NCBI GenBank assembly: GCA_965364615.1
Contig: CBDTYO010000002.1
Coordinates: 1 to 37,393, forward strand
Direction of reading: 5' to 3'
DNA from: an uncultured Bacteroidia bacterium
Lineage (GTDB): Bacteria > Bacteroidota > Bacteroidia > Bacteroidales > GCA-2748055
Length of the DNA stretch: 37,393 nucleotides
Positions 9,722 through 26,780 of the stretch are shown piece by piece. The notes below the pieces were generated by a model. That model saw only the letters and a program-made list of their open reading frames with translations, searched no databases and was not told the DNA's origin. Positions within the stretch are counted from its first letter, which is position 1; the number at the start of each line of letters is the position of its first letter. The position numbers and the translations under genes were made by a program.

Positions 9722-9742
9722 ATTTGTCGTAATTGTGCGAAT

Positions 9743-9760
9743 GCGGACAACCTCTGTCCG
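9743..9760 (+). terminator. Weak stem-loop downstream of the efflux operon
   Basis: CGGACA-acctc-TGTCCG begins 22 nt after the TolC stop codon. No U-tract follows, so an intrinsic-terminator role is uncertain. Confidence 0.25.
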
Positions 9761-9889
9761 GATCAGGTCATTGGATCAAAAGGATCGCGCCCAATCCAGA
9801 ATATCTAATTAGTTTATAATTAGGTTTTTAACAAAATTGGTAGGACCTTTGTATGTTTTTGGATGCCATATTCATCTTAAAACTGCTTC

Positions 9890-12304
9890 ATGCTCCGACA
9901 TTTATTTACCATTTCCATCAGGAACATCCTGAAACATTTCAATTATTCCTTGCTGAATATCATCGGACTGGCCATAGGGATTTCCAGCTTCCTGTTCATC
10001 CTGATCTATGTGAGCGATGAATTAAAATATGATCGCTTCCATGAGAACCATGCGCAGATCTACCGCATGAACCGCCTTTACAACTCCAATGATATCCATG
10101 AGGATGCTGCCACAGTTTCTTTCCCCTTTGGTCCGGCCCTGGCCGAGGATTATCCCGACATGGTGAAAAACATGGTTCGCTTTTTTGACTTCCAGATTTC
10201 AGAAATGCTTTTTGAATACCGGGGGGACAGTACGGATATCATCAAATACAACGAGGAGTGGTTTTACCTGGCCGATTCAACGGTATTTCAGATGTTCAAC
10301 TTTCCGCTTCTGGAAGGAGATCCACTCACAGTCCTGAACGAACCCAACAGGGTAGTGCTTTCGGAAAGCACCGCCCAGCGCTACTTTGGGGATGAACCCG
10401 CCGTGGGGAAAACCCTGTTCTTTGAGGAACAGGTTCCCGTGGAAGTAGCCGGCATTATGAAGGATCTGCCTCCCCAGTCTCATTTTAAAATTGACATCCT
10501 GGGTTCCATGTCTACTTTCCGGGCCATGCAGGGCGGACAAATGCCCCAGACCTGGATCTGGAATCCCTGCTGGACCTATGTGGAGCTGCACGATCATGTA
10601 AGCAGGGAGCAGCTTGAGGCTGTTCTGCCCGACTTTTACCTGAATCAGTATGCGGATTTCCAGGACCAGGACATCACCCTGTACCTGCAAGCGCTCACGG
10701 ATATACACCTCAACTCGCACCACGAATACGAAATGCACCCCAATGGCAAGCTTTCCTACATCAAGATCCTCGCCATCATTGGCATTTTTGTCCTGGTCCT
10801 GGCCTGCATCAATTTCATGAACCTGGCCACTGCCAGTTCAGCCGGTCGGGGCAGGGAGATCGGCATGAAGAAGGTGGCAGGAGCCAGAAGGTCTCAGCTC
10901 AGGACCCAGTTTTTGGGAGAATCCTTGATCATCACCTTTTTCGCCCTGCTTCTGGCAGCCATCCTGGTGGAGATACTGCTTCCCTCCTTTAACAACTTCA
11001 CTGGCAAGTCGATCGATACGGGGATCGTGATCAGGCCGCTCAGTCTTTCCGTGGGACTGGTGCTGTTATTGGTGGTGGGCCTGCTCTCCGGATCCTATCC
11101 TGCTTTTTTTCTCTCACGGCTCGACACCTCCCACCTGAAGGACAGCCTCACCGGGGGCGCCGGCAGGGGCCTGGCAAGAAAGGTCCTGGTCGTGGTGCAG
11201 TTTCTGATTTCAGTGGCACTGATCATTGGCACCATCACAGCCTTTTCCCAGCTCAACTACCTGAGAAAAGCTGACCTGGGTTTCGACCGTGACCAGGTCA
11301 TCCTCTTGCCCACCAAGTTTAACCTGGGTCTCCGATTCGATGCTTTTGCGGAGGAATTGAAGAAACATGAAGACATCATTTCGGTTACCGGGATGGAAGA
11401 CATTCTGGGAGCCAACCACAATACCCGCTCCTTTGTGATTGAAGGCATGTTCGACGATCAACCCTTTTGGTACCCGGCCTTCATGGTCAGGCATGACTTC
11501 ATCGAAACATTCAATATCCCCGTGGTAGAGGGCAGGGCCTTCTCCCGGGATTTTCCTTCAGACACCTCCGAGGCCATCATGATCAATGAAAGCATGGCCA
11601 AGCACCTGGGATGGACCAACGAAGAAGCCATTGGCAAAGCCATCCGTTCGGACGGTAACGAAAGGGTGATCGGGGTGTTCAGTGATTTTAATGCCCTTTC
11701 TCTGCATAAGCCTGCAGGCAATTTTGTCCTGGATATGGTGCAGAATCCGCGCGGAGCTGCGTTCCTGACCCGCTACATGGCCGTGAAAGCAAATACAGAT
11801 GACTATGCAGGGGTATTAAAATACATGGAGGAGGTCTGGAACGATTTTGCCCCCACCCGTCCCTTTGAATACTCCTTCCTGGATGAAGAGCTTAATGCAC
11901 TTTACACAGACGAGAGCAGTTTTTCTAAGCTTTCCATCATATTGACCTTCCTGGCCATCATCATCGCCTGCCTGGGTCTGATCGGCCTGACCAGCTTCAT
12001 GGTGGAACGCAAGACCAAAGAAATCAGTGTGCGAAGGGTGCATGGTGCCACCATCTCCCATGTGAATACCATGCTTTCCAAGGAATTTCTAGGTTTGATC
12101 ATGATTGCCAATCTGATCAGCTGGCCCATTGCCTGGTTTGGGATCAGCCGCTGGCTGGAAAATTTCAGCAGCCACATCGATGTCCAGTGGTACCTCTTCC
12201 TGGTATCCGCCCTGGTTACCATATTCATTACCGTACTGATCACCACCATACATGCTTTCAGGGCCTCCCGGATGAATCCGGCCGATACCCTGAAATACGA
12301 ATAG
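9890..12304 (+). CDS. ABC-transporter permease, MacB-like with duplicated FtsX domains
   Basis: 804 aa. The order is N-terminal TM, large extracytoplasmic domain, 4-TM FtsX bundle, second extracytoplasmic domain, second FtsX bundle (C-terminus ...AFRASRMNPADTLKYE). No ATPase gene is adjacent. Confidence 0.85.
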   Translation: MLRHLFTISIRNILKHFNYSLLNIIGLAIGISSFLFILIYVSDELKYDRFHENHAQIYRMNRLYNSNDIHEDAATVSFPFGPALAEDYPDMVKNMVRFFDFQISEMLFEYRGDSTDIIKYNEEWFYLADSTVFQMFNFPLLEGDPLTVLNEPNRVVLSESTAQRYFGDEPAVGKTLFFEEQVPVEVAGIMKDLPPQSHFKIDILGSMSTFRAMQGGQMPQTWIWNPCWTYVELHDHVSREQLEAVLPDFYLNQYADFQDQDITLYLQALTDIHLNSHHEYEMHPNGKLSYIKILAIIGIFVLVLACINFMNLATASSAGRGREIGMKKVAGARRSQLRTQFLGESLIITFFALLLAAILVEILLPSFNNFTGKSIDTGIVIRPLSLSVGLVLLLVVGLLSGSYPAFFLSRLDTSHLKDSLTGGAGRGLARKVLVVVQFLISVALIIGTITAFSQLNYLRKADLGFDRDQVILLPTKFNLGLRFDAFAEELKKHEDIISVTGMEDILGANHNTRSFVIEGMFDDQPFWYPAFMVRHDFIETFNIPVVEGRAFSRDFPSDTSEAIMINESMAKHLGWTNEEAIGKAIRSDGNERVIGVFSDFNALSLHKPAGNFVLDMVQNPRGAAFLTRYMAVKANTDDYAGVLKYMEEVWNDFAPTRPFEYSFLDEELNALYTDESSFSKLSIILTFLAIIIACLGLIGLTSFMVERKTKEISVRRVHGATISHVNTMLSKEFLGLIMIANLISWPIAWFGISRWLENFSSHIDVQWYLFLVSALVTIFITVLITTIHAFRASRMNPADTLKYE

Positions 12305-13725: not shown

Positions 13726-14394
13726 GTGTCAAAAGGATCTGGTTCACTCACCGCAAGAATAAGGAAGAATCCCCACAGAATCAGGATCGTTTCCCTGACC
13801 GTTCTGGGCATTCTGATTTTTGCGGCATTCATACACCAGGCCTTTCCTCGTTTATTACTGGCCATCGCAGGAATCACGATGACGGGAGCCGCCATCGCCT
13901 ACTCCATCAGGGGACAGGCAATCGCTGAGGCTTTTGCCCTGGACCGTTTCACCCGGAAAGTGTTGCTATTTTGCCTCCTTGCCATCCCCATCGGGACTCT
14001 TCTGGGCATGCTCACCAGGAACACCTTTGATATTTCTCTGTTCCCTGTCCGGATCACCCTGGTGGCCCTGGTGGCCCCATTGGTTGGAGCCTTTGAAGAG
14101 CTGATTTTCAGAGGCTATATCCAGGGCCACCTTCGTCCCATTGGCCGATATTTTTCCGTGGTATATGCCTCCGCGGTCCACACCTCCTATAAACTGCTTG
14201 TCATCCTGACCCTTTCGGTTTCCCTTCAGTTTGATTTTTTCTTCCTGGTAATCTGGACCTTTGTGGGGGGACTCCTTTTCGGCACCTTGCGTGAGTTTTC
14301 ACAAAGCACCCTCCCTGCCATGACGGCCCATGCTGTTTTCGATGTGGTGGTCTACGGAGGCCTTGCCACCATGCCCGTCTGGGTATGGACTTAG
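13726..14394 (+). CDS. CPBP-family intramembrane glutamic endopeptidase (CAAX protease-like)
   Basis: It is multi-TM. The motifs are FEELIFRGYIQG (EExxxR), SAVHTSYK and MTAHAVFD (HxxxD/N). A GTG start lies 4 nt after the LRR gene's stop codon. Confidence 0.8.
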   Translation: MSKGSGSLTARIRKNPHRIRIVSLTVLGILIFAAFIHQAFPRLLLAIAGITMTGAAIAYSIRGQAIAEAFALDRFTRKVLLFCLLAIPIGTLLGMLTRNTFDISLFPVRITLVALVAPLVGAFEELIFRGYIQGHLRPIGRYFSVVYASAVHTSYKLLVILTLSVSLQFDFFFLVIWTFVGGLLFGTLREFSQSTLPAMTAHAVFDVVVYGGLATMPVWVWT

Positions 14395-14410
14395 TTTGTA
14401 TATTTATATC

Positions 14411-15436
14411 ATGAAAAACAGCATTCTTCCAGGCATCATCCTTTCAGCCTTCCTGCTGGCAGGATGTCAGCAGAAAACCGATAGCCACATCATGACCGTA
14501 CAGGGGCTCATTCCTGCCTCGGAGATGGGCATCACCCTGAGTCATGAACATGTGCTGGTGGACTTCATCGGGGCTGACAGCTCTGGCTACCACAGGTGGG
14601 ACAGGCAGGAAGTGATGGCCAAGGTCCTGCCCTTCCTGACCGAAATCCAGAAGCACAAGGTCTCCACCCTGGTGGAGTGCACTCCGGCCTATCTGGGCAG
14701 GGATCCATGGCTCCTGAGGGCGCTATCAGAAGAAACCGGCATGCACCTGGTCACCAATACAGGGTATTACGGTGCACATCAGAACCTATTCGTCCCCGCT
14801 CATTTTCATCAAATGGATGCCGAGGAAATTTCCCGAATCTGGGTGGAGGAGTTTGAAGAGGGGATCGAAGGAAGTGGCGTGAGGCCCGGATTTATTAAAA
14901 TCGCGGTGGACAGAGATTCCAGCCTCTCGGAAGCACATCAAAAAATCATCACTGCAGCGGCCATGACCCACCAGCGAACCGGCCTGGTCATTGCCTCCCA
15001 TACGGGTCCGGATGCTCCGGCATTTGCACAGATCTCAGTACTTCAATCCCGGGGTGTCGATCCTTCAGCCTTTATCTGGGTTCATGCCCAGGGGGGAAGC
15101 CTGGAAGGCAATATCAAAGCGGCCCGACTGGGAACCTGGATCTCCCTGGACAATGTCAATGTCAATCGGGAGCCGGGATCTGATCAGGATGTGGAGTGGT
15201 ACGCAAACAGATTAACCGCCCTGAAAGACGCCAACCTGCTTGATCGGGTATTGATCTCTCACGATGCAGGATGGTACAAACCGGAAGAAAAGGATGGGGG
15301 ATCATTCAGGGGATTTACCGGGATCTTCACAGATCTGGTCCCTGCACTGATCTCACATGGTTTTACAACCGGGGAGATCGACCTCTTGCTGGTGAAAAAT
15401 CCGGCCAGGGCTTTTAGTCTGAGGTCACCTTCCTGA
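14411..15436 (+). CDS. Phosphotriesterase-family hydrolase (PTE/PHP-like, possible lactonase), lipoprotein
   Basis: It has a lipobox (MKNSILPGIILSAFLLAGC), GITLSHEHVLVDF (the H-x-H metal site) and LISHDAGWY. The ATG at 14411 is preferred over the upstream start at 14330, which overlaps the CPBP gene. Confidence 0.85.
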   Translation: MKNSILPGIILSAFLLAGCQQKTDSHIMTVQGLIPASEMGITLSHEHVLVDFIGADSSGYHRWDRQEVMAKVLPFLTEIQKHKVSTLVECTPAYLGRDPWLLRALSEETGMHLVTNTGYYGAHQNLFVPAHFHQMDAEEISRIWVEEFEEGIEGSGVRPGFIKIAVDRDSSLSEAHQKIITAAAMTHQRTGLVIASHTGPDAPAFAQISVLQSRGVDPSAFIWVHAQGGSLEGNIKAARLGTWISLDNVNVNREPGSDQDVEWYANRLTALKDANLLDRVLISHDAGWYKPEEKDGGSFRGFTGIFTDLVPALISHGFTTGEIDLLLVKNPARAFSLRSPS

Positions 15437-15449: not shown

Positions 15450-16109
15450 TTATACGTGGGATACACAATAGATCACACTCTCAATCTCATCGCTCAGGTT
15501 GACATTATTTACAACGATATACTCCGGGACTTTTAGGATCACCGGGGCAAAGTTGATGATCCCTTCCACCCCATATTCCAACAGCTTGTCACAAACCGAC
15601 TGGGCTGCCAGATCCGGAACTGCCAGAATCGCAGTCCGGACCGAAAACCTGTCGATGACTTCCTTCAGGCGCTCCATGGTGTACACCGGGATATCAGACC
15701 GTATGCGTTGTTTGGAAGGATCAATATCGAAGGTGGCCACTATATTGATCATGCGTTGGCTGAAATTGCTGTAATTGGCCAGTGAGGATCCGATGTTTCC
15801 CCGGCCCATCACAATGATATTCTGGCTGCCATTCCTGTAAAAAATTCCTTCCATTTCAGTGATCAGCTGATCCACGAGATATCCGCCCCGCTGGTTCCCC
15901 TTGATCCGGTATTCCGAAAAATCCTTTCTCACCTGCTCGGCCGAGATTCCGGTTTCCTTTCCCAGGGTATAGGAATATACCCTTTTTACCCCCAGGGCCT
16001 GCAGTCTAAGCAGGCTGCCGCGATACAGAAGGATCCTTCTCAGGCTCTTCCTCAATGGGCATTTTGTATTTTTTTTCACATTATTCTTTTTCTTAGGCGC
16101 ATATTTCAC
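15450..16109 (-). CDS. rex: Redox-sensing transcriptional repressor Rex
   Basis: It has an N-terminal winged-helix region (RRILLYRGSLLRLQALGVKRVYSYTLGKETGISAEQVRKDFS) and a Rossmann motif (IIVMGRGNIGSSLANY). The start is GTG, so the exact start is uncertain. It is divergent from the hydrogenase operon. Confidence 0.85.
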   Translation of the reverse strand: MKYAPKKKNNVKKNTKCPLRKSLRRILLYRGSLLRLQALGVKRVYSYTLGKETGISAEQVRKDFSEYRIKGNQRGGYLVDQLITEMEGIFYRNGSQNIIVMGRGNIGSSLANYSNFSQRMINIVATFDIDPSKQRIRSDIPVYTMERLKEVIDRFSVRTAILAVPDLAAQSVCDKLLEYGVEGIINFAPVILKVPEYIVVNNVNLSDEIESVIYCVSHV

Positions 16110-16179
16110 ACAATATCAGAAAAAATTATTAAAAATCAAATTTACCTATAGTATTGTACTATAATGATTTAGCGTCTAG

Positions 16180-16195
16180 TGTTACATGTTTCACA
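16180..16195. promoter_or_regulatory. Candidate Rex operator in the rex/hydrogenase divergent intergenic region
   Basis: The sequence is TGTTAC-ATGT-TTCACA. Against the commonly cited Rex consensus TGTGAA-N4-TTCACA, the right half matches 6/6 and the left half 4/6. It lies 75 nt upstream of the first operon gene. Confidence 0.3.
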
Positions 16196-16269
16196 GCATA
16201 TGTCCAGGGATTCCGGGTTGACTGATATTCGGACTGAATATATTTTTATGGTTATATTTTTCACATATA

Positions 16270-17265
16270 ATGAAGAGGATCACAATCCCCAAGCGCGAAT
16301 GGGATGAGAGGATCCAAGAGCTCCTTTCGTCTTGGAATTTTTATGCCCCGGTGGAAAATGAGTTCAGTTGTGACTATGCCCTGTTGAGTTCCGAAACAGT
16401 TTCTGGGATCGTATACAACAAACCCAAACCGGTTACCCCCTTAAAAAAATTCTTTCTCCCAATCAAGGAAAACGTGACCACCCTCCACCAAAACAGCCGC
16501 CCGGTGGTGATCCTTGGGGCTCCGAATTGCGATGTGATGGCCCTGGCCTTGCTGGACCAGATCTATCTGGACCAGGATTATTACGACCCTGCATATGGTG
16601 AGCGAAGAGAGAGGACGACCATCATCACTTCCGACTGTTTCAGCATTCAGGAGCATTGTCACTGCACCAGCTATGGCATTGATCCCAAAGGCAATGAACA
16701 CTCAGATCTATCTGTAGCCCTGATAGAAGATCAGGTGATTCTCACCACATTCAATGAGAAGGGAGAATCATTCATTGAAAAGCTGGGCATGACGGTCACT
16801 GTTGATCCCGGGAAGCAGCTCATGGAGCTTCTGAAAAACAAGCATCAGGAAGTGGTGAAGTTACTGGCCAGGCAGAATGAGGGACTCCCGGATACCGAGG
16901 AAACCGGCAAGCTCATCAGAGCCAATGGGGAAGAGGTCTGGAAGAAGTACGCCAGGGATTGTGTATCCTGTGGAGCCTGCAGCGCCATTTGTCCTTCCTG
17001 TTCCTGCTTCTTGCTGATCGATAAGCCGGGATTTCAAAAAATCAGGCAGCTCGACACCTGCCAGTATCCTGGTTTTGAGCGCGTAGCAGGAGGTGAGGAT
17101 GCCCTGGGGCCGCTTTCTGAGCGGTTCAGGAACCGCTACCTGTGCAAATATGTCTGGAAGCCCGGAAACTACCATTTGAACGCTTGTACCGGTTGTGGCC
17201 GTTGTATCGAGACCTGCATTGGACAGATCAATAAGAATGAACTCATCATGGAGTTGTCAAACTGA
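16270..17265 (+). CDS. Fe-S subunit, sulfhydrogenase beta (HydB) / AsrA-like
   Basis: 331 aa. Motifs are LGAPNCDVMALALLD, a CHC motif, CVSCGACSAICPSCSCF, LDTCQYPGFERVAGG and CTGCGRCIETC. This layout is shared by AsrA and the group-3b hydrogenase beta subunit. Confidence 0.75.
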   Translation: MKRITIPKREWDERIQELLSSWNFYAPVENEFSCDYALLSSETVSGIVYNKPKPVTPLKKFFLPIKENVTTLHQNSRPVVILGAPNCDVMALALLDQIYLDQDYYDPAYGERRERTTIITSDCFSIQEHCHCTSYGIDPKGNEHSDLSVALIEDQVILTTFNEKGESFIEKLGMTVTVDPGKQLMELLKNKHQEVVKLLARQNEGLPDTEETGKLIRANGEEVWKKYARDCVSCGACSAICPSCSCFLLIDKPGFQKIRQLDTCQYPGFERVAGGEDALGPLSERFRNRYLCKYVWKPGNYHLNACTGCGRCIETCIGQINKNELIMELSN

Positions 17266-17271
17266 GCCGAC

Positions 17272-18096
17272 ATGGGAATAAACGGAAATTTTTACAAACC
17301 CCTGAAATGTGAGCTGACCAAGGTGATCGATGAATCGCCGCTGATCAAAACATTTGTCCTGGTGCCGGAAAAAGAATTCTCTTTTGCCACCGGACAATTC
17401 ATCGAGGTCACCATCGACGGCCTGGGAGAAGCGCCATTTACGCCCTCGTCCTCCCCGCTGCAGAAAGATAAGCTTGAGGTCACCGTCATGAAAACCGGCT
17501 ATGTCACCGATCATATGCACACCATGAAGCCGGGAGATGTGATGGGAATCAGGGGGCCATTCGGACGTGGATATCCTGTAGAAAGATTCCATGACAAGGA
17601 GGTGCTGATCCTGGGAGGAGGTTGTGGATTTGCCCCCATCCGTTCCCTGCTGTTTAACCTGATCGCGATCTCCGATAAACTGAGAAAGGTGACCCTCTGT
17701 TACGGTTCCAAAACCCCCGAAGATTGTATCTATAAACCCTATATCCAGGAATTGCGGGGTACTCCCAAGTTTGAGGTGCTCCGGAGCGTGGACCAGGCAG
17801 ATTCCAATTGGACCGAGCGGGTAGGGGTGGTCACCGTTTTGCTTGACGATGTAAACATGGACATCCCTAACTCGGTAGCCGTGGTATGCGGTCCCCCCAT
17901 CATGATGAAATTCGGAACCATGAAGTTGCTGGAAATGGGATACCCGGAAGAAGATATTTACCTGTCCATGGAGAAAAATATGTCCTGTGGCCTTGGAAAA
18001 TGCGGGCACTGCATGATGGGTCAGTACCTGGTTTGCAAAGACGGACCGGTCTTTACCTACACCGAAATCAAAGATCAACCCCATATCTGGAACTGA
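17272..18096 (+). CDS. FAD/NAD(P)-binding oxidoreductase with C-terminal [2Fe-2S], sulfhydrogenase gamma (HydG) / AsrB / PyrK-like
   Basis: 274 aa with a ferredoxin-reductase-type fold. Motifs are GQFIEVTIDGLGEAPFTPSS, VLILGGGCGFAPIRS (the nucleotide-binding GGGxGxAP) and CGLGKCGHCMMG...VCKDGPVF. Confidence 0.8.
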   Translation: MGINGNFYKPLKCELTKVIDESPLIKTFVLVPEKEFSFATGQFIEVTIDGLGEAPFTPSSSPLQKDKLEVTVMKTGYVTDHMHTMKPGDVMGIRGPFGRGYPVERFHDKEVLILGGGCGFAPIRSLLFNLIAISDKLRKVTLCYGSKTPEDCIYKPYIQELRGTPKFEVLRSVDQADSNWTERVGVVTVLLDDVNMDIPNSVAVVCGPPIMMKFGTMKLLEMGYPEEDIYLSMEKNMSCGLGKCGHCMMGQYLVCKDGPVFTYTEIKDQPHIWN

Positions 18097-18097
18097 C

Positions 18098-18595
18098 ATG
18101 GCACAAAAGATCCTGATCGACCTGGAGAAACTCAGATCCATTGAGGGCACAAGCAGCGATCAAAGTCCCCCGGAAGGGTTCTGTGGATTCTCCATTGACG
18201 CCCGGGGCTTAAAAAGCATCCGCGAGCAGGCCGTATTCCGCTTTTCCTGCCGCAGGTGCTCCGATGCCCCCTGCATCGCTGTTTGCCCGGCCGAGGCCCT
18301 GGAGAAAGATGAAGAGGGATTCATTTCCCGCTCCACAAACCTTTGCATTGGTTGCAAATCCTGTGTTGTCATTTGTCCCTTCGGGACCATGATGAACGAT
18401 TTCTTTGAATACCACCGCAACAAGGAGAATTACTACGACCTGTCGGATGAGAAGGAACTGGATCTCTGGATCCGGTCTTCCCCCGAAGGAGCTGTCTCCC
18501 GGGTAGACATGGAGGAGGACCCGGAACAACATATCTACCAATTGAATGAGCATATCCTGGTGCGGGAACGCACATGGAATACTGATCACATGTAA
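18098..18595 (+). CDS. 2x[4Fe-4S] ferredoxin-like electron-transfer subunit (HycB/HydN-like)
   Basis: The motifs are CRRCSDAPCIAVCP and CIGCKSCVVICPFG. It starts 2 nt after the preceding gene. Confidence 0.75.
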   Translation: MAQKILIDLEKLRSIEGTSSDQSPPEGFCGFSIDARGLKSIREQAVFRFSCRRCSDAPCIAVCPAEALEKDEEGFISRSTNLCIGCKSCVVICPFGTMMNDFFEYHRNKENYYDLSDEKELDLWIRSSPEGAVSRVDMEEDPEQHIYQLNEHILVRERTWNTDHM

Positions 18596-18605
18596 ATATA
18601 CTCTT

Positions 18606-19538
18606 ATGGGAACAAGCCTTTTCTATTTCCTTGTATACCCCGGTTTTCTGTTCATGGCTGTGATAGGGGGACTGCTTTCCTGGTTCGACCGGAAAATCAC
18701 AGCCGGGGTGCAGTTTCGCAAAGGGCCTCCAGTTCTTCAGCCCTTTTATGATTTCTTTAAACTTTTGCTGGTGAAGGAGACCATCCTGCCGGCAAGGGGG
18801 GCCAAGGGTTTGTTCCTGGCTGCTCCGGTATTTGCTGTGTTTGGTGCCACCATGGCCGGGGTTTTTATCCTGCTGCCCCTGCTGAACATCACCACGGGAT
18901 TTCATGGGGATCTGATTGTGATTTTCTACCTGCTCACCATTCCTTCACTGACCTATGTCATCGGGGCCCTTTCCTCAGGAAACCCCCTGGCGGCCATAGG
19001 AGGATCCCGGGAAATGAAACTCATACTGAGTTATGAACTGACCTTTCTGCTGGTGCTGGTGGGCATCATCATCAAGTCTGACCAGAGCATTGATCTGTAC
19101 CAGATCATTCAAACGCAACATAACGGCACTCCCTTCATTGGAAGCATATCCGGGGTGCTGCTGTTTTTGGTGGCCATTTTCTGCCTGCAGGCAAAACTCG
19201 CCCTGGTACCCTTCGACATGCCCGAAGCGGAAACTGAGATCAGCGACGGCATATTCATTGAATACTCCGGCACTCCCTATGCCATGATCAAACTATCAAA
19301 GTACATCCTCTTTTTTGTGCTGCCTGCCTTTGTGGTGGCCCTGCTCATGAACGGGACCCGGCTGGAAGGCATTGGCATACTCTGGGCGGTGCTCAAGCTG
19401 GTGGCCGTGGTGCTGCTGCTGACCCTCATTCGGAATACCAATCCGAGGATCAAGATCAAGCAGGCGATTCGCTTCTTCTTTGTCTGGATGAATCTATTGG
19501 TGATTATTGCTATTGTTCTGGCAATCTTTGGTTTATAA
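18606..19538 (+). CDS. Membrane anchor subunit, NuoH / HycD / MbhM-like
   Basis: The motif is LSWFDRKITAGVQFRKGPP. It is multi-TM, with the conserved region ...LALVPFDMPEAETEISDGIFIEYSG. The ATG at 18606 is preferred over 18546, which overlaps the upstream gene. Confidence 0.85.
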   Translation: MGTSLFYFLVYPGFLFMAVIGGLLSWFDRKITAGVQFRKGPPVLQPFYDFFKLLLVKETILPARGAKGLFLAAPVFAVFGATMAGVFILLPLLNITTGFHGDLIVIFYLLTIPSLTYVIGALSSGNPLAAIGGSREMKLILSYELTFLLVLVGIIIKSDQSIDLYQIIQTQHNGTPFIGSISGVLLFLVAIFCLQAKLALVPFDMPEAETEISDGIFIEYSGTPYAMIKLSKYILFFVLPAFVVALLMNGTRLEGIGILWAVLKLVAVVLLLTLIRNTNPRIKIKQAIRFFFVWMNLLVIIAIVLAIFGL

Positions 19539-19548
19539 AAAAAAGAAC

Positions 19549-19962
19549 GTGGGATTTAAAAGCTTCTGTTTCAAGAAATCATTGTGGTTGTTTCACTTTG
19601 GAGGCGCCTCATGCAACAACTGTGATATTGAGATCCTGGATTGCCTGACACCCAGGTATGATGTGGAACGCTTCGGTATGCTGCTGGTGGGCAGTGTCAG
19701 GCATGCCGATGTCTTGCTGGTCAATGGCTCCATCAACAAGAAGGACAAACCCCGCCTCCTTGAAATCTATGAGCAGGCCCCAAAACCTGTGCTGGTGGTG
19801 GCCATTGGTGCCTGTGGTTGCACGGGGGGCATTTTTGCGGAAGGAGATACTTTTGCCGGACCGGTGGACCAAATCATCCCGGTGGATGCTTACATCCCGG
19901 GGTGTCCCCCCAAACCGGAGGCCATACTGGCCGGAGTTGTCAAACTAATGGGTAAAAACTAA
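19549..19962 (+). CDS. [NiFe]-hydrogenase small subunit, NuoB / HycG / MbhJ-like
   Basis: The motifs are SLWLFHFGGASCNNCDIE, AIGACGCTGG and YIPGCPPKPE, which supply the four Cys of the proximal [4Fe-4S]. The start is uncertain (GTG 19549 or TTG 19507), and no ATG is available. Confidence 0.85.
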   Translation: MGFKSFCFKKSLWLFHFGGASCNNCDIEILDCLTPRYDVERFGMLLVGSVRHADVLLVNGSINKKDKPRLLEIYEQAPKPVLVVAIGACGCTGGIFAEGDTFAGPVDQIIPVDAYIPGCPPKPEAILAGVVKLMGKN

Positions 19963-19967
19963 GGGCC

Positions 19968-20414
19968 ATGATGCTTGAAGAACTAAAAAAGACCTTCTCC
20001 AAAGAAATACTGGATTCAGAGTCGAGGAATGAACGCCGGGTCACCTTGTTCATCCAACCTTCCGCCCTGGTTGCCATGGCTGAACACCTGTATAAACAAC
20101 TTGGCTTCAGGTTTATCATAGCTTCGGCCCTTCACACCAAAAGGGGATTTGAGATCTTCTACCATTTCTCCTACGATAAAACCGGACTGATCCTGAATCT
20201 GCATGTGACCCTCGATCAGGCCAAGCCGGAGGTTGAATCCCTCTCAAACCTGTTCTCAGCCACCAATTGGATTGAAAGAGAAATGCATGAACTCTTCGGT
20301 ATAGACTTTTTGAATCATCCCAACCTGGAACAGTTGCTCTCAGACGGAAACTGGGCCCTGGGAGAATATCCCTACAGAAAGACATTCAAATCAAACGGGG
20401 AGGCCAAAACATGA
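19968..20414 (+). CDS. NuoC / MbhK-like hydrogenase subunit
   Basis: 148 aa. The motif is ...SATNWIEREMHELFGIDFLNHPNL, the NuoC/30-kDa-subunit signature. An ATGA overlap joins it to the large-subunit gene. Confidence 0.85.
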   Translation: MMLEELKKTFSKEILDSESRNERRVTLFIQPSALVAMAEHLYKQLGFRFIIASALHTKRGFEIFYHFSYDKTGLILNLHVTLDQAKPEVESLSNLFSATNWIEREMHELFGIDFLNHPNLEQLLSDGNWALGEYPYRKTFKSNGEAKT

Positions 20415-21604
20415 GCAAGCAAACATTGATACCCGTAGGGCCCTACCATCCTTTACAGGAGGAGCCCGAGCTATTCAAACTTTATTGCGACGGCGAGATT
20501 GTCAAGGATGTTAAATGGGAGACGGGCTATAACCACCGCGGCATTGAGAAACTGGCCGAGAAGAAAAGTTACGAAGAAGTTTTTTTCCTGGTGGAAAGGA
20601 TCTGTGGGATCTGCTCTACCTCCCATCCCTTCGCTTTTGCGAACAGCGTGGAAGAAATCGCAGGAGTGGAGATTCCTGATCGTGCCAAGTACATACGCTC
20701 CATCATCGGGGAACTGGAGCGCATCCACAGCCACCTGCTCTGGGTAGGTCTTGCCGGACATTTCCTGGGTTACAACACCGTCTTTATGTGGGCCTGGAAA
20801 TACCGCGAACCGGTCCTGGATCTGTTCGAGATGATCACCGGTAACCGGAACAGCTATGCCATGTTTAAGGTGGGCGGGGTCAGAAGGGATATCGAAAACC
20901 AGATGGTGCCGGCCATCGAAAAGGTGCTGGCACTGGTGAAGAAAAAAACAGACATGCTGGTGGGTGCTGTCATGGACGATCCCGTGATCCATGCCCGTAC
21001 CAAAGGGGTGGGGATCCTGACCCCGCAGGACATACTGGATTTTGCCGCCGTGGGACCCACCGCCCGGGCATCGGGGGTAGACATCGATGTGAGGCGCGAC
21101 GACCCTTATGCTGCCTATCCGCTGGTGAACTGGAAAGTCATCACTGCACAGGCCGGCGATGTATTTGCCAAGGCAGAGGTGCGTTTGCTGGAGATGTATG
21201 AATCCATTGCCATCATTGAACAATGCCTGACCGGATTAAAAAAGGAGAAAGAAGGCCAGGTGGAAGTGAAAGTGAAACACATCCCCGAAGGATATGGAAC
21301 GGGGCATGCAGAGGCCCCCAGGGGGGAAGTCTATCATTTTGTGGTATCAGATGGTTCCAATTCTCCGGCCCGCCACAAAATCAGGGCCCCAAGCTACACC
21401 AACATTGCCACCTTCAAGAAGTCCTGCGTGGGTCAGAGCATTTCTGATGCCACCATCTCCCTGGCAGCCGTGGACCCCTGTTATTGCTGCACCGAAAGGC
21501 TCGCAGTGGCTCTGGACCGGGCTTCGGGCAAACGGCTCATGAATGCCCGGGAGATCATCAAGCAGTCTGCCGAGCTAACCAACAAATTGCTTCAACAAGA
21601 ATAA
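20411..21604 (+). CDS. Group-4 [NiFe]-hydrogenase large (catalytic) subunit, NuoD / HycE / MbhL-like
   Basis: 397 aa. The N-terminal motif is ERICGICSTSH (Cys65/Cys68) and the C-terminal motif is DPCYCCTER (21473-21499). A 34-aa tail follows the C-terminal motif. Confidence 0.9.
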   Translation: MSKQTLIPVGPYHPLQEEPELFKLYCDGEIVKDVKWETGYNHRGIEKLAEKKSYEEVFFLVERICGICSTSHPFAFANSVEEIAGVEIPDRAKYIRSIIGELERIHSHLLWVGLAGHFLGYNTVFMWAWKYREPVLDLFEMITGNRNSYAMFKVGGVRRDIENQMVPAIEKVLALVKKKTDMLVGAVMDDPVIHARTKGVGILTPQDILDFAAVGPTARASGVDIDVRRDDPYAAYPLVNWKVITAQAGDVFAKAEVRLLEMYESIAIIEQCLTGLKKEKEGQVEVKVKHIPEGYGTGHAEAPRGEVYHFVVSDGSNSPARHKIRAPSYTNIATFKKSCVGQSISDATISLAAVDPCYCCTERLAVALDRASGKRLMNAREIIKQSAELTNKLLQQE

Positions 21605-21607
21605 ACC

Positions 21608-23434
21608 ATGATCATGACCCAGGCCATACAAATCATTGCCGTTCCCGTATTAATGGGCATCCTGTTGTTCCTGCTGCCGTCCGCACTGAGAGTGATTAAA
21701 GCCTTCATTGCCATGGGTGTGGTTCTTTTCACGGGATATCTGGCCCTGAGCCTGTTCGGATCAGAAGACCTGGTATTCTCCCCTGATTACTGGACCCTAA
21801 CAGATAAATACTGTTCCTTCTCCCTGGATGGATTAAGCAGGCTCATCCTCCTTTTTATGGGTTTTATTTCCCTGGTGGTTGTGATCTATTCTCTGGGTTA
21901 CAAAGGGGCAGCGGGCATGCGGAATTTCCATGCCTGGTTCCTGATTACCCTGGGATTTTCCTTTGGTGCCGTACTGGCCAACAACCTGCTGCTATTCCTG
22001 ATCTGCTGGGGGATCCTGGGAATTTCGCTCTACCAGCTGGTGCACGGAAAAGATGAAAGAAGCAGTGCAGCGGCCAAGAAGACCCTGGTGTTGATCGGAG
22101 CCTCAGACGGGATCATGATCCTGGGGATTGCCATTCTCTGGAGGGTCACCGGGACCCTGAATATGAATGAGATAACGCTTCCAACCAGCGATCTGGTCCG
22201 GACCGTGGCCTGCCTCTCCCTGCTGGTGGGGAGCTTCACCAAGGCAGGAGCCTTCCCTTTTCACACCTGGGTGCCCGATTATGCCGAGACAGCCCCTGCC
22301 ACTTCCTCGGCCTTCCTTCCCGCCTCTCTGGACAAGCTCCTGGGCATTTATTTCCTGGCCAGGATCACCACCCAGCTTTTTGTGATGAGTGATTGGATGA
22401 GATTTGTGTTGCTGAGCATCGGGGTTGTGACCATCATTACCGCGGTTTTGATGGCCCTGGTACAACACAATTACAAACGATTGCTTGGCTTTCACGCAGT
22501 CTCCCAGGTGGGTTATATGGTAGTGGGATTCGGATTGGGGTCCATGTTGGGCGTCGCAGCCGGCCTGTTTCACATGATCAACAATGCCATTTACAAAGGG
22601 GGTTTATTTCTTTCAGTCGGTGCAGTGAAGCACCAAACGGGCAAGGAGGACATGGAAGATCTGGGCGGATTATCCAGGGCCATGCCCCTCACTTTCTTTG
22701 CCACCCTGGTATTTGCCCTGTCCATCTCGGGGATCCCGCCATTCAATGGTTTTGCATCCAAATGGATGATATATCAGGGCATCATTGATTTCGGTCAGGG
22801 TTCCGGCATCTCCAACCAGCTCTGGATGGTGTGGCTCGGACTGGCAGTCCTGGGCTCAGCCCTTACCCTGGCCAGCTTCATCAAGTTTACGGGGGGCATT
22901 TTCCTGGGACGCCAGTTAAAACCAGGTTCCAAGATCAAAGAGGTGGGTGCCCTGATGTGGGTCCCCATGATGATCCTTGCCCTGATTTGTATCGGGTTTG
23001 GGGCATTTTCCACCAAGCTGGTGGTTCCCCGTTTATTCATGCCTGTGACAGGTACATTTGAATTTACAGGGACCTGGGCCTCAGGCACAGTAAGCATCCT
23101 GGTCCTGGTATCCATTGTCCTGGGACTGTTGATTTACCTGCTGGGCAATGCGAAAAATTTCCGCACCTCCGATAGTTTTGTGGGTGGGGAAAAGATCCAG
23201 GACCAAACTTCTTATTCCACCCTGGAGTTTTATAAGAGCCTGCAGGAATTCCCCTGGTTGGGCCGCATGTTTCAAAGAGCCAAAGAGGGATGGTTTGATC
23301 TCTACCAGCTGGGCAGGCAATTTATTTCCTGGCTTGGGGCCATTTTCAGCCGCTTACATACCGGAGTTTTACACGACTATGCGCTATGGGTGTTTGCAGG
23401 TGTTGTGATCCTTTTGTTGTTGCTAATCACCTAA
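21608..23434 (+). CDS. Antiporter-like subunit, MrpA N-terminal / NuoL / MbhH-like
   Basis: 608 aa, multi-TM. Motifs are FHTWVPDYAETAPATSSAFL, HMINNAIYKGGLFLSVGAV and GIPPFNGFASKW, the proton-conducting Mrp/Nuo L/M/N signature. Confidence 0.85.
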   Translation: MIMTQAIQIIAVPVLMGILLFLLPSALRVIKAFIAMGVVLFTGYLALSLFGSEDLVFSPDYWTLTDKYCSFSLDGLSRLILLFMGFISLVVVIYSLGYKGAAGMRNFHAWFLITLGFSFGAVLANNLLLFLICWGILGISLYQLVHGKDERSSAAAKKTLVLIGASDGIMILGIAILWRVTGTLNMNEITLPTSDLVRTVACLSLLVGSFTKAGAFPFHTWVPDYAETAPATSSAFLPASLDKLLGIYFLARITTQLFVMSDWMRFVLLSIGVVTIITAVLMALVQHNYKRLLGFHAVSQVGYMVVGFGLGSMLGVAAGLFHMINNAIYKGGLFLSVGAVKHQTGKEDMEDLGGLSRAMPLTFFATLVFALSISGIPPFNGFASKWMIYQGIIDFGQGSGISNQLWMVWLGLAVLGSALTLASFIKFTGGIFLGRQLKPGSKIKEVGALMWVPMMILALICIGFGAFSTKLVVPRLFMPVTGTFEFTGTWASGTVSILVLVSIVLGLLIYLLGNAKNFRTSDSFVGGEKIQDQTSYSTLEFYKSLQEFPWLGRMFQRAKEGWFDLYQLGRQFISWLGAIFSRLHTGVLHDYALWVFAGVVILLLLLIT

Positions 23435-23446
23435 TCTGATCAAAAC

Positions 23447-23980
23447 ATGGAATTAACAATTTCCATCATACTGGGATTTATGATCATCGGAGCGATCTAT
23501 GCCTTACACGCAAAAGATCTCCTTTCGGCCGTGGTAGCCATGGGCATCGTAGGCTACGGACTGGTGATCTGCTTCTTATTGCTGAAAGCCCCGGACCTGG
23601 CCATCGTTCAGATTGTGGTTGAAACCATTACCCTGGTGATCATGGTGGCAGTGGTGCTGGACAGTACCCGAAAGGAATTGGAAGTGCCCTTCGACCGTAA
23701 ATCATTGCTCAACACCATTGCGGGATTTGTGGTGTTTGCCGGCTTGTTCTACTTTTTTCTGAATGCCATTGAAAGTCTCGATCCCCTGGGAATGCATTCG
23801 CTCAGAATGGCAGAACCCTATGTAACCGGTGCCGTGGAAAGCACGGGCAGCATCAACCTGGTCACGGGTGTTTTATTCGACTTCAGGGCCTATGATACAC
23901 TGGGAGAAGCCGTCATCCTCTATACTGCCGCGCTGGGAGCCCTTACCCTGCTTAGAATGAAAGGAAAAAAAACAGACTGA
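23447..23980 (+). CDS. MrpA C-terminal-like subunit (DUF4040 plus MnhB-type domain; MbhD/E equivalent)
   Basis: 177 aa with 5-6 TM segments. The C-terminal motif is NLVTGVLFDFRAYDTLGEAVIL, the MnhB-domain signature. Confidence 0.7.
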   Translation: MELTISIILGFMIIGAIYALHAKDLLSAVVAMGIVGYGLVICFLLLKAPDLAIVQIVVETITLVIMVAVVLDSTRKELEVPFDRKSLLNTIAGFVVFAGLFYFFLNAIESLDPLGMHSLRMAEPYVTGAVESTGSINLVTGVLFDFRAYDTLGEAVILYTAALGALTLLRMKGKKTD

Positions 23981-23981
23981 T

Positions 23982-24419
23982 ATGGAAGGAATGTCCACAA
24001 TTGTCAAAAAGGTCAGCCAACTGGTGGCGGGACTCATTTTCATGTACGGGATATATATCATTCTGCATGGACACCTGACCCCGGGAGGAGGATTTGCCGG
24101 CGGGGCCATCATTGCAGGAGCATTTATTCTGCTGATCCTGGCCTTTGGAAGCAGTGCCCTGAATCTGAAGAAAGAGGTGGTGGGCTCCTCCGCTACTGAG
24201 AGTCTGGCCATCCTGATGGTGGTGATCCTGGCTGTGATGTCCCTGTTGCTGGGACTCAAGGTATTCTTCACCAACTTCCTTCCCAAGGGGGAGCCTGGAG
24301 AGCTGCTGAGCGCAGGAGTGATCCCCCTCTACAATATTTTCATCGGCATCGAAGTGGCCGGGGCCATCCTGACCATATTCCTTGCCCTGGTCATCTTTAA
24401 AGAGGAGAGCACAAAATGA
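23982..24419 (+). CDS. mrpB: Na+/H+ antiporter subunit B (MrpB/MnhB, MbhF-like)
   Basis: The motif is ILHGHLTPGGGFAGGAIIAGAF. It is 145 aa with 4 TM segments and starts 2 nt after the preceding gene. Confidence 0.8.
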   Translation: MEGMSTIVKKVSQLVAGLIFMYGIYIILHGHLTPGGGFAGGAIIAGAFILLILAFGSSALNLKKEVVGSSATESLAILMVVILAVMSLLLGLKVFFTNFLPKGEPGELLSAGVIPLYNIFIGIEVAGAILTIFLALVIFKEESTK

Positions 24420-24754
24420 TTGTCTATGTACTTTGTTTCGTTCTTTTTCTGGTGGGCCTCTATGGGGTGATCACCCGGAGAAACCTGATCAAGATTGCCA
24501 TATCGCTTTCTATCATGGAGTTCAGCATTTTCCTGATTCTTGTGCTGATCGGCTATATTGATCAGGGCCTGGCTCCCATTGTCGAACCCGGATCCGGAAC
24601 GCAGGTATATGTGGATCCACTGCCCCAGGCCATGGTGCTCACCGCCATTGTGATCGGTCTGGCTACCACCGCCATGCTCATGGCCATTGCCATCAGGCTC
24701 TACCGCAAGTATAAGACCTTTGACATTCGTGAAATTAAAAACCTAAGAGGATAA
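24416..24754 (+). CDS. mrpC: Na+/H+ antiporter subunit C (MrpC/MnhC, NuoK-like)
   Basis: 112 aa with 3 TM segments. The motif is GLYGVITRRNLIKIAISLSIME. It has an ATGA overlap with the preceding gene. Confidence 0.8.
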   Translation: MIVYVLCFVLFLVGLYGVITRRNLIKIAISLSIMEFSIFLILVLIGYIDQGLAPIVEPGSGTQVYVDPLPQAMVLTAIVIGLATTAMLMAIAIRLYRKYKTFDIREIKNLRG

Positions 24755-24757
24755 GAG

Positions 24758-26293
24758 ATGGATGCACTGATTCCCCTGTTCGTTGCCATACCCCTGTTGG
24801 TTGCCTTCCTGATCATCCTGCTCAGTAAGCTGGTCAGGGGAATTCACAGGTTCCTGGCACCATTGACCCTGCTGGCGCTCCTGCTTATGGCTGTTTTTGA
24901 ATTTACCGGTCTGGGAGGTATTTCCCGCACCTATGCCATGGGTGGATGGACCGCAGATGGCGGATTCCCTGTGGGAATATTCCTGGTGCTGGACGGATTT
25001 TCAGTGCTTATGCTTTGCATCATCAACCTCATCGGACTGGTGGCCCTGTTTTACTCGCTGTCCTATATGGCCAAATATACCGCTGAGGCCAATTATTACG
25101 CCCTGTTTTGCCTGATTGTGGCCGGAATGAACGGGGTGGTGCTCAGTGGCGATCTTTTCAACTTGTTTGTCTTCCTGGAAGTGTCGGTCATTGCTTCCTA
25201 TGCGCTTGTGGCTTTCGGCGTAGGGAAAACCGAATTGGAAGCCTCCTTCAAATACCAGGTGCTCGGGGGCCTTGCTTCTATGCTGATCCTGCTGGCCATC
25301 GGATTGATTTACTGGAAATCCAAAACACTAAACCTGGCCGATGTGCGAAATGTATTGGATGAAGGATATAGCCGGGCATTTTATGTGTTTGTGCAGGTAT
25401 TGCTTATTGCAGGATTTGGCCTGAAAGCAGCCATCATCCCCTTTCATGCATGGCTGCCCGACGCCCACTCTTCAGCGCCTTCCCCCATTTCTGCCATGCT
25501 GTCCGGGGTCCTGATCAAAGCAGTGGGCATCTATGTGCTGATCCGCCTGTTCTTCAATCTGTTTGTATTCAGCCATGAAATTGCCCTGGTTTTGACTTCG
25601 CTGGGAGCCATATCCATGGTGGTGGGATCGTTGCTGGCCATCATGCAATGGGATGTGAAAAGATTGCTGGCCTATTCCAGCATCAGTCAGATTGGATACG
25701 TGGTCATGGCCTTTGGAATGGGTATTCTTCTCCTGATGAAAGGGGACCAGGAAGCTGCTGCCATCCTGGCCATAGGCGGAGGTATCTACCACATGATCAA
25801 CCATGCCGTTTTCAAAGGACTGCTGTTCCTCAATGCCGGATCCCTGGAATACAGGCTGGATACCCGAAACCTGAAAGAGATGGGAGGGCTCTCAAAGGCC
25901 ATGCCGGTGACCTCCACCACCTCATTCATGGCGTCCATGTCCATCTCAGGAATCCCGCCCTTCAATGGTTTCTTCAGCAAACTCATCATCATCGTGGCAG
26001 CCATCAACGGGCGATTCTACCTGCTGGCCACCCTGGCTGTGGTGGTGAGCATCATCACCCTGGGTTACTTCCTGAAATTCCAGCGCTTTGCCTTCTTCAA
26101 CAAAGCCGGTAAGGCTGTGGAAAAAATTAAGGAAGTTCCCTTGGCCATGTCATTGAGCATGATATTTCTGGCCATCCTGTGCGTGGGATTGAGCCTGCTG
26201 GCCATTCCGTCCGTCAGCGACACTGTGCTGCGCCCGGCCATTGATGTACTGATTCAACCCGAACTCTATTCAACAACAATTATTGGAATTTGA
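24758..26293 (+). CDS. mrpD: Na+/H+ antiporter subunit D (MrpD/MnhD, NuoM/N-like)
   Basis: 511 aa. Motifs are FHAWLPDAHSSAPSPISAMLSG, HMINHAVFKGLLFLNAG and GIPPFNGFFSK. Confidence 0.85.
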   Translation: MDALIPLFVAIPLLVAFLIILLSKLVRGIHRFLAPLTLLALLLMAVFEFTGLGGISRTYAMGGWTADGGFPVGIFLVLDGFSVLMLCIINLIGLVALFYSLSYMAKYTAEANYYALFCLIVAGMNGVVLSGDLFNLFVFLEVSVIASYALVAFGVGKTELEASFKYQVLGGLASMLILLAIGLIYWKSKTLNLADVRNVLDEGYSRAFYVFVQVLLIAGFGLKAAIIPFHAWLPDAHSSAPSPISAMLSGVLIKAVGIYVLIRLFFNLFVFSHEIALVLTSLGAISMVVGSLLAIMQWDVKRLLAYSSISQIGYVVMAFGMGILLLMKGDQEAAAILAIGGGIYHMINHAVFKGLLFLNAGSLEYRLDTRNLKEMGGLSKAMPVTSTTSFMASMSISGIPPFNGFFSKLIIIVAAINGRFYLLATLAVVVSIITLGYFLKFQRFAFFNKAGKAVEKIKEVPLAMSLSMIFLAILCVGLSLLAIPSVSDTVLRPAIDVLIQPELYSTTIIGI

Positions 26294-26294
26294 T

Positions 26295-26780
26295 ATGAGA
26301 TACCTGGCACTGTTCCTACTGACCTTTGTATTCTGGTTGCTTCTGACCTTCGATCTTTCGGTGCCCAACCTGATCGCCGGCGGAGCGGCTGCCCTGGTCA
26401 CCTCTCTCTTGTTTACCAAGTACTTTTTCCACAAGGTGGCAAAATTCATACAACCGGTCCGCTACTTCTGGCTGCTGGTCTACCTGGTCATTTTTACCTG
26501 GGAGTGCATCAAGGCCAACTTTGACGTGGCCTATCGGGTATTGCATCCAGCCATGCCTATCAAGCCCGGAATTGTCAAGGTACACCTGGAACTGAAATCA
26601 GACTTTGCCAGAACCATGTTGGCCAATTCCATCACCATGACCCCGGGCACCATTTCGGTGGACATCATCGATGACGTGCTCTTCGTACACTGGATCTATG
26701 TAAGATCGGAAGATCCGGAAGTCTATAGCCGGAGAATTGCAGGAAAATTCGAAAAATACATTAAAAAGATCTTTGAATGA
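26295..26780 (+). CDS. mrpE: Na+/H+ antiporter subunit E (MrpE/MnhE)
   Basis: It has two N-terminal TM segments, then ANFDVAYRVLHPAMPIKPGIV...MLANSITMTPGT. The ATG at 26295 is preferred over the TTG at 26283. Confidence 0.8.
   Translation: MRYLALFLLTFVFWLLLTFDLSVPNLIAGGAAALVTSLLFTKYFFHKVAKFIQPVRYFWLLVYLVIFTWECIKANFDVAYRVLHPAMPIKPGIVKVHLELKSDFARTMLANSITMTPGTISVDIIDDVLFVHWIYVRSEDPEVYSRRIAGKFEKYIKKIFE

Follow-up and report, generated by a model that had tools for sequence, protein, structure and literature searches.

A putative NAD(P)H input arm and predicted Rex control in the Hun [NiFe] hydrogenase operon of an uncultured Bacteroidia bacterium

Group 4 membrane-bound [NiFe] hydrogenases draw on few electron donors. 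In the HydDB classification every group 4 class has ferredoxin, formate or CO as its donor, and none is coupled to NAD(P)H. The question raised here is whether one of them may nevertheless be fed by NAD(P)H. It concerns a stretch of 37,393 nucleotides from an uncultured Bacteroidia bacterium (contig CBDTYO010000002.1), called the window below; all positions are numbered on this whole stretch. Its operon at 16270-27967 encodes a group 4 hydrogenase of the kind named Hun, and the first three genes, hunA, hunB and hunC, encode a flavoprotein and two iron-sulfur (Fe-S) proteins. An initial annotation of the sequence proposed that these proteins connect the hydrogenase to NAD(P)H and called such coupling unusual for a membrane-bound enzyme, which the HydDB classes bear out. 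We argue here, with modest confidence, that HunABC is an NAD(P)H-type distal input arm of Hun, that H2 evolution by the complex is driven by ions, and that the operon is repressed by Rex.

The open reading frames (ORFs) of 331, 274 and 165 amino acids lie exactly where they were first placed, at 16270-17265 (hunA), 17272-18096 (hunB) and 18098-18595 (hunC), on the forward strand like the rest of the operon. HunB is an AsrB/HydG(gamma)-like protein and carries the proposed NAD(P)H site. It matches Pfam FAD_binding_6, NAD_binding_1 and DHODB_Fe-S_bind, each above the gathering score, and contains the sequences GGGCGFAPIRS and CGLGKCGHC, in agreement with the FAD/NAD(P) fold and [2Fe-2S] motif described initially. 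Its best match in the PDB is the gamma subunit (9nez_C, E = 2.2e-49) of SH-I, the group 3b sulfhydrogenase of Pyrococcus furiosus. An AlphaFold2 model of HunB, built with database homologues, has a mean predicted local distance difference test score (pLDDT) of 84.2 and a predicted template modelling score (pTM) of 0.85. The closest fold to this model is the gamma subunit of NADPH-bound SH-I (9nf0_C, TM 0.86), followed by NADH-cytochrome b5 reductases and NqrF. The nucleotide pocket of the gamma-like subunit had been singled out as a point to check; as far as sequence and predicted fold tell, it is not missing.

The other two proteins are equally recognisable. HunA is an AsrA/HydB(beta)-like poly-[4Fe-4S] protein. 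It matches Pfam Fer4_22 (E = 2.8e-20), and its best NCBIfam matches are ShyB (E = 1.6e-40), AsrA and HydB, in the range E 1e-31 to 1e-40 and all far under the equivalog cut-offs. Its sole PDB match is the SH-I beta subunit (9nez_B, E = 2.4e-25), with every Cys group in register, and its 16 motif-forming Cys (C87 to C316) are conserved. The AsrA/HydB-type cysteine pattern that had been noted is therefore real. HunC, next in order, was correctly taken for a 2x[4Fe-4S] protein: Pfam and NCBIfam matches agree, and it has two complete four-Cys groups, C51/54/59/63 and C83/86/89/93. Its nearest matches are connector ferredoxins of the HydN/HycB type, including HycB of the Escherichia coli formate hydrogenlyase and HycB3/4 of the hydrogen-dependent CO2 reductase (HDCR).

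These genes open a series of 16 tightly packed genes, 1-10 nt apart, that were identified from ORFs and from Pfam and NCBIfam matches. They are followed by a NuoH/MbhM-like membrane anchor, hunD (18546-19538; Pfam NADHdh, E = 1.4e-61), a NuoB-type hydrogenase small subunit, hunE (19507-19962; Oxidored_q6, with conserved CNNC, GACGC and GCPP Cys motifs), a NuoC-like subunit, hunF (19968-20414; Complex1_30kDa), the [NiFe] large subunit, hunG (20411-21604), and a NuoL/MbhH-like antiporter subunit of 608 residues, hunH (21608-23434; Proton_antipo_M). The ORF call for hunD overlaps hunC and is probably too long, the start being ATG 18606 instead of 18546, as relatives begin at the equivalent of M21. 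Genes hunI to hunO (23447-27359) form the Mrp module and were assigned by Pfam as MbhD/E (23447-23980), MnhB (23982-24419), a NuoK-like protein (24416-24754), an MrpD-like protein of 511 residues (24758-26293), MrpE (26283-26780), MrpF (26777-27043) and MrpG (27045-27359). The last gene, hunP (27359-27967; Pfam, NCBIfam and PDB matches), encodes a NuoI/HycF-like 2x[4Fe-4S] subunit.

The hydrogenase itself has the features of a group 4 energy-converting [NiFe] enzyme. HunG has L1 (RICGICSTSH) and L2 (DPCYCCTER) motifs that supply the four Ni-Fe Cys ligands, together with a C-terminal extension of 34 residues of the cleavable type, and a HycI-type maturation endopeptidase is encoded directly after hunP (27974-28423, forward strand; PF01750, 31.5 bits against a cut-off of 23). 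The small subunit is NuoB-type with one [4Fe-4S] cluster. The CGIC and CYCC motifs of L1 and L2 are at least 98% conserved in 67 sequences and are present in other phyla too. Matches of HunG to MbhL (6cfw_L, 285 bits) and HycE (7z0s_E, 280 bits) are about equal.

The same gene set in the same order (AsrA-like, AsrB-like, Fe-S, NuoH, NuoB, NuoC, [NiFe] large subunit, NuoL, seven Mrp-type, NuoI) was described by Glass et al. (2021; bioRxiv 10.1101/536078) as hunA-P, encoding "Hun", a 16-subunit Ni-Fe hydrogenase-Na+/H+ antiporter supercomplex. They noted that HunAB is AsrAB-like without AsrC, that HunG belongs to HydDB group 4g yet is distant from other 4g sequences, with unusual CGIC/CYCC motifs, and that hun occurs in Atribacteria, Firmicutes, Omnitrophica, Elusimicrobia, Bacteroidetes and cultured Kosmotoga. 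Because gene number, order and motifs match that description, the operon in the window is a Bacteroidia member of Hun, a 16-subunit, Mrp-linked group 4 (HydDB 4g-type) membrane-bound [NiFe] hydrogenase. The complex is thus already published and named, no new complex is described here, and no structural difference from the published one was found. Earlier surveys had met the same arrangement without explaining it: one recorded a "Mbh-Mrp-oxidoreductase type" whose oxidoreductase had no assigned function, and another, in Saganbacteria, a group 4 hydrogenase that it called "enigmatic" and that is accompanied by asrA/asrB-like genes. We also found a HunA homologue in Ca. Saelkia tenebricola, where the sole hydrogenase had been typed 4g. 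Only the functional reading differs. Glass et al. proposed ferredoxin as the donor to HunABC and mentioned neither NAD(P)H nor Rex; the case for an NAD(P)H dehydrogenase input arm instead of a ferredoxin acceptor, and the conserved Rex control, appear to be new relative to the searchable literature.

Is the association of the flavoprotein with the hydrogenase a constant one? One genome per GTDB species was scanned for HunA, which gave 258 relatives, and the best 80 were taken for synteny. These 80 are all Bacteroidia metagenome-assembled genomes (MAGs), and in every Bacteroidia locus with enough flank the order hunA-B-C-D-E-F-G-H and onward is identical. In HunB, the FAD motifs GEAPFTPSSSP, MKTGYVT and RGPFGRGYP, the NAD-domain motifs LGGGCGxAPIRS, CYGSKTxxDCIYKP and VCGPPxMMK, and the [2Fe-2S] Cys are conserved at 90-98% or more (77-80 species genomes), as are the 16 motif Cys of HunA. 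Given this conservation and the order kept in 80 loci, the features of the three genes are not due to chance. A 151-residue protein with a cyclic-nucleotide-binding domain (PF00027, 41.5 bits) is encoded between hunB and hunC in 31 of the 80 Bacteroidia operons (for example L021, 11882-12337; the 30 others are among L020-L080) and is absent from the window; its role may be regulatory or accessory.

A wider, profile-free exhaustive search with HunA gave 192 clusters (50% identity) at E ≤ 1e-30. The nearest relatives outside Bacteroidia share 28-41% identity and come from at least five other phyla, with Spirochaetota, Omnitrophota, Elusimicrobiota, Saganbacteria and further lineages represented. 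Eight of their gene contexts were informative, the contigs of L087, L088 and partly L089 being too short. All eight are Hun-type, and the position hunA-B-C-D is held down to 28% HunA identity. HunB is 54-58% identical across these phyla, and its cofactor motifs (GEAPFTPSSSP, RGPxG, GGGxGxAPxRS, CGPPxMMKF and four Cys) are invariant. The proposal that the flavoprotein/Fe-S unit is intact and tied to an Mrp-type group 4 hydrogenase is therefore well founded.

Five of the eight contexts (L081/82, L083, L084, L085 and L093/94) have the order of the window. In the other three, from Saganbacteria and two other lineages, a molybdopterin oxidoreductase of 518-610 residues and one extra gene are inserted. 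The oxidoreductase lies downstream of hunB (L090, 12944-14674; L091, 11881-13437; L092, 11880-13712); in L091 and L092 an unannotated protein of 234-250 residues follows hunC, and L090 has instead an extra 309-residue gene between hunB and the molybdopterin gene. They correspond to the molybdopterin protein that Glass et al. described between HunB and HunC in certain MAGs. To judge from their gene content, these variants may be complexes with two inputs, formate(?) and NAD(P)H. A molybdopterin or formate dehydrogenase subunit is absent from the window and the Bacteroidia loci and was seen among the contexts only in L090-L092. Group 3 alpha/delta hydrogenase subunits and the AsrC siroheme subunit were found neither in the window nor in the 88 related contexts.

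A second line of evidence, a link to NADH that the initial annotation had not drawn on, comes from the neighbouring gene. Divergent from hunA, on the reverse strand at 15450-16109, is rex, encoding a redox-sensing (NADH/NAD+) repressor (200.6 bits to NCBIfam NF003996, where the cut-off is 138; Pfam Put_DNA-bind_N and CoA_binding). The ORF call is probably too long here as well, the start being GTG 16079 rather than 16109. A divergent rex lies upstream of hunA in 74 of the 80 related Bacteroidia loci. Immediately upstream of rex, more distant Bacteroidia relatives have HypF (L021, 6889-9024; L071, 6881-9115), and in the clade of the window this position is held by a phosphotriesterase-family protein with a lipoprotein-like N-terminus (window 14330-15436).

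An alignment of 75 rex-hunA intergenic regions contains only two strongly conserved islands, and both are Rex-box palindromes. The first, TTGTGAwTTGTTTCACAw, is at the 5' end of rex and matches the Rex box TTGTGAAnnnnTTCACAA at 12-14 of 14 positions in most relatives. In the window it corresponds to predicted operator A, TTGTATTTTTTTTCACAT (16064-16081; 10/14), which contains the probable rex start. The second, ATGTGAATCTTCTCACAT, matches at 11/14 in most relatives; it follows a TTGACT ... TAnnTTTTAT pair and ends 2-4 nt ahead of the hunA ATG. Its counterpart in the window is predicted operator B, TGGTTATATTTTTCACAT (16249-16266; 10/14), which directly follows the -10-like box and stops 3 nt short of the ATG. 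A further operator-like site C, GTGTTACATGTTTCACAG (16179-16196; 10/14), is found only in the window's own clade, where its homologues reach 12/14 in L001, L008 and L014 and 11/14 in L010. The promoter-like sequence TTGACT-17-TATTTT (16218-16246, forward strand) is used here despite a scan of the window for sigma-70 promoters and terminators that gave counts no higher than shuffled sequence, because its boxes are conserved in the relatives.

Over all these loci the enrichment of the Rex box is pronounced. The 16.3 kb of control regions hold 73 sites that agree with TTGTGAAnnnnTTCACAA at 12/14 or better, spread over 68 of 74 loci, as against 7 in the remaining 1.35 Mb, an enrichment of 863-fold. 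It is also found that rex and operators beside hunA recur independently, with different gene orientation, in two other lineages. In Omnitrophota (L083) a 12/14 box lies within the 52-bp rex-hunA gap and is the sole such site in 19.6 kb; in the molybdopterin-variant lineage (L089/L090) there is a 13/14 box at the start of rex and an 11/14 box over the -35 of the hunA promoter. The hun genes thus have what is expected of a Rex regulon, namely a Rex protein and predicted operators of the TTGTGAAnnnnTTCACAA type at the target promoter. Since operator B starts right after the hunA -10-like box, the geometry of the sites fits a repressor. In Caldicellulosiruptor (C.) bescii, Rex represses an NADH-dependent bifurcating hydrogenase from sites over its promoter.

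On the basis of these observations, we infer the following mechanism, in which substrate, electron path, direction and ion coupling are proposed and gene content, motifs, fold, synteny and operator conservation are what was observed. The FAD of HunB would take hydride from NAD(P)H, most likely NADH. Electrons would then pass from the [2Fe-2S] cluster of HunB to the [4Fe-4S] clusters of HunA, the two clusters of HunC, the two of HunP and the single cluster of HunE, and reach the Ni-Fe site of HunG. The wiring would follow the plan of formate hydrogenlyase, except that an NAD(P)H dehydrogenase stands where the formate dehydrogenase would be and the membrane arm is of the Mrp type. This is proposed because HunC matches HycB and HDCR HycB3/4, and because the best PDB match of HunP is HycF (7z0s_F, E = 4.6e-26, 95 bits), far above MbhN (38 bits). 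Outside its two [4Fe-4S] motifs, HunP also carries two further CxxC pairs (C126/C129 and C190/C193) on a C-terminal extension; the pairs could form a zinc ribbon or an additional cluster, and the HunABC arm might dock on the extension.

The initial annotation held that H2 formation from NAD(P)H is endergonic at standard potentials; for NADH we calculate +18.2 kJ/mol at 1 atm H2, with equilibrium only at about 1e-3 to 1e-4 atm. The passage of one ion across 150 mV provides 14.5 kJ/mol. Because the reaction is uphill except at very low H2, we propose that one or two ions entering through the Mrp arm, which has two antiporter-like subunits, could push H2 formation from NADH forward even where the H2 level would otherwise forbid it. 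Near equilibrium the complex could run in reverse. The adjacent Rex would repress the operon at low NADH/NAD+ and release it when NADH accumulates; Hun would thus appear to be a valve that vents excess NADH as H2, which is consistent with derepression. Rex control also gives a mild lean towards NADH rather than NADPH as the nucleotide. The beta2-loop motif of HunB was considered as a discriminator between the two and rejected, because it aligns equally with both kinds of enzyme.

Several points weigh against this proposal. The loop in question, YG[SA]KTxxD, aligns as well with NADH-specific NqrF (YGARSLRE) and NfnA (LGARTKD) as with the NADPH-preferring SH-I gamma subunit. The Rex sites of the window are each only 10/14 and alone are not above chance (two matches to the Rex pattern in the window, 1.7 expected), and rex is not adjacent in six of the eight non-Bacteroidia contexts. 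Rex control alone is no proof of NADH use, because in C. bescii Rex also controls a ferredoxin-dependent, NADH-independent membrane-bound hydrogenase (MBH), which it activates by acting at a site 45 bp ahead of where transcription starts. The complex has kept HunP, the subunit that accepts ferredoxin electrons in MBH, so that ferredoxin could still feed Hun. Given that HunAB coexists with another substrate module in the L090-L092 variants, it might be an outlet to NAD(P)+ instead of an inlet. Finally, the only published model of this biochemically uncharacterised complex names another donor.

That model (Glass et al., 2021) is the alternative that survives best. In it Hun is ferredoxin-driven like MBH: HunABC accept electrons from reduced ferredoxin, H2 evolution pumps ions out, and the NAD(P) domain of HunB is not a physiological point of entry. 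HydDB lists group 4g as ferredoxin-coupled (putative), with its role undetermined, and metagenome papers assume the same; ferredoxin could dock on HunC and HunP, which are themselves ferredoxin-like, and the C. bescii MBH is an instance of a ferredoxin-dependent enzyme under Rex. A ferredoxin-only route, however, has no use for a flavoprotein or for an NAD-binding domain. HunB nevertheless keeps its FAD and NAD motifs unchanged in six or more phyla, and its closest solved homologue, SH-I gamma, binds NADPH. MBH works without a module of the HunABC type. The premise of that model that AsrAB proteins draw on ferredoxin is likewise not what their domain content points to, and the Salmonella Asr enzyme has been described as NADH-linked. 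These features indirectly favour NAD(P)H over ferredoxin as the donor, and we consider a purely ferredoxin-driven Hun unlikely, while giving it real weight.

A different possibility keeps the NAD(P) coupling and turns it round: Hun would oxidise H2, reduce NAD(P)+ and export ions, conserving about 18 kJ/mol. At high H2 this direction releases energy, the HydDB table gives group 4 enzymes as reversible, and the membrane arm of Hun is complete. Derepression of the operon at high NADH, as the operator geometry predicts, would be the wrong signal for an enzyme that produces NADH, and it fits better with an NADH-oxidising, H2-evolving direction than with H2 uptake. The Bacteroidia hosts, to judge from record names (ADurb, MFD, CSMAG, binchicken), also appear to live in digesters, sediments and wastewater, habitats that usually hold little H2. 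Net H2 uptake is thus in our view distinctly improbable. Least probable by far is that HunA is a sulfur or polysulfide reductase, as was once proposed for the sulfhydrogenase beta subunit and suggested for this protein in the initial annotation, or that HunABC is a soluble oxidoreductase in its own right that only shares the transcript. Neither finds support: HunA is a homologue of SH-I beta and AsrA, but no AsrC/siroheme subunit or sulfur-handling gene is present in the window or the 88 contexts, HunC is a HycB-type connector, and the hunA-B-C-D position is strict across phyla even at 28% identity. Flavin-based bifurcation or confurcation was set aside, as the operon has no known bifurcating module (HydB/NuoF FMN, NfnB, EtfAB or HdrA).

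Comparison with characterised systems places the proposed NAD(P)H-fed Hun among several relatives. MBH of P. furiosus (PDB 6CFW; group 4d, ferredoxin-coupled and Mrp-linked) shares the MbhJKLMN-like core and the Mrp-type membrane arm; it lacks the HunABC arm, and Hun has a second large antiporter-like subunit. SH-I (PDB 9nez/9nf0) shares the FAD, NAD(P), [2Fe-2S] and Cys motifs of HunA and HunB, but there the hydrogenase partner is a group 3 alpha/delta dimer, whereas in Hun it is a group 4 membrane hydrogenase. Against the NCBIfam equivalogs for group 3b sulfhydrogenase the window scores only 139 (cut-off 690) and 179 (cut-off 600). The AsrABC sulfite reductase of Salmonella is also related, HunA matching TIGR02910 (114 bits, cut-off 323) and HunB TIGR02911 (209 bits, cut-off 289); both are under the cut-off, and AsrC is absent. 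The formate hydrogenlyase of E. coli (PDB 7Z0S; group 4a) and the Mrp-linked, formate- or CO-respiring group 4b enzymes use the same connector logic, from a dehydrogenase through HycB-like and HycF-like proteins to the small and large subunits. Neither a molybdopterin nor a formate dehydrogenase subunit is encoded in the window, which leaves HunB as the only substrate-binding module; the Saganbacteria-type variants of Hun carry a molybdopterin subunit in addition.

The resemblance to respiratory complex I is of a more general kind. Both have a dehydrogenase module of the NADH type that is joined by a chain of Fe-S clusters, the NuoBCDHI core and subunits resembling antiporters. In complex I, however, the input is NuoEFG, and in Hun it is of the HydBG/AsrAB type; no NuoE, NuoF or NuoG is encoded in the window, which does not qualify as complex I. 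The NuoD homologue, HunG, retains the Ni-Fe Cys, so that the acceptor would be H+ rather than quinone, and the reaction would be uphill instead of downhill.

It is worth adding what else the window contains. After the HycI protease gene, 28426-28836 encodes a protein of 136 residues with two CxxC pairs and no Pfam family, in the same arrangement as on a near-identical metagenome scaffold (L086). A divergent thymidylate-synthase-family protein (29671-30579, forward strand; 39.5 bits) is convergent with a nucleoside 2-deoxyribosyltransferase-family protein (30548-30982, reverse strand), a pair that we take to resemble the CMP-hydroxymethylase/N-glycosidase pairs of the MilA/MilB type. Upstream, at 532-1989 and 3948-12304, are a sulfatase, a resistance-nodulation-division (RND) efflux system (HlyD-like, AcrB-like and OEP) and a MacB-type permease; they look like ordinary neighbours, apparently unconnected with the hydrogenase.

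If the reading of HunABC as an NAD(P)H input arm is taken to its full extent, Hun would be the first NADH:proton oxidoreductase to be coupled to ion-motive force, in function a "complex I that reduces protons". Its N-module would have been recruited independently from the HydBG/AsrAB lineage. The complex would be turned on by Rex as NADH builds up, and with it fermenters and syntrophs of at least six phyla could release NADH as H2 beyond the thermodynamic H2 threshold, at a cost of one or two imported ions per H2; at least this part of group 4g would then be NAD(P)H-coupled instead of ferredoxin-coupled. We put this fuller version forward tentatively, as a possibility that we hold at rather less than even. 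The characterised group 4 hydrogenases all use ferredoxin, formate or CO, and an NADH-linked, ion-coupled enzyme, if true, would fill a gap as a new functional class. The donor now assumed for Hun and for group 4g would need correcting, and a second, independent NADH module would have been grafted on the Mbh/Mrp scaffold that gave rise to complex I. Because hun has been reported in cultured Kosmotoga, the question of the donor is directly testable. Models of H2 thresholds and of NADH re-oxidation would then change for the hun-bearing Bacteroidia, Omnitrophota, Elusimicrobiota and Atribacteria of digesters, sediments and the deep subsurface.

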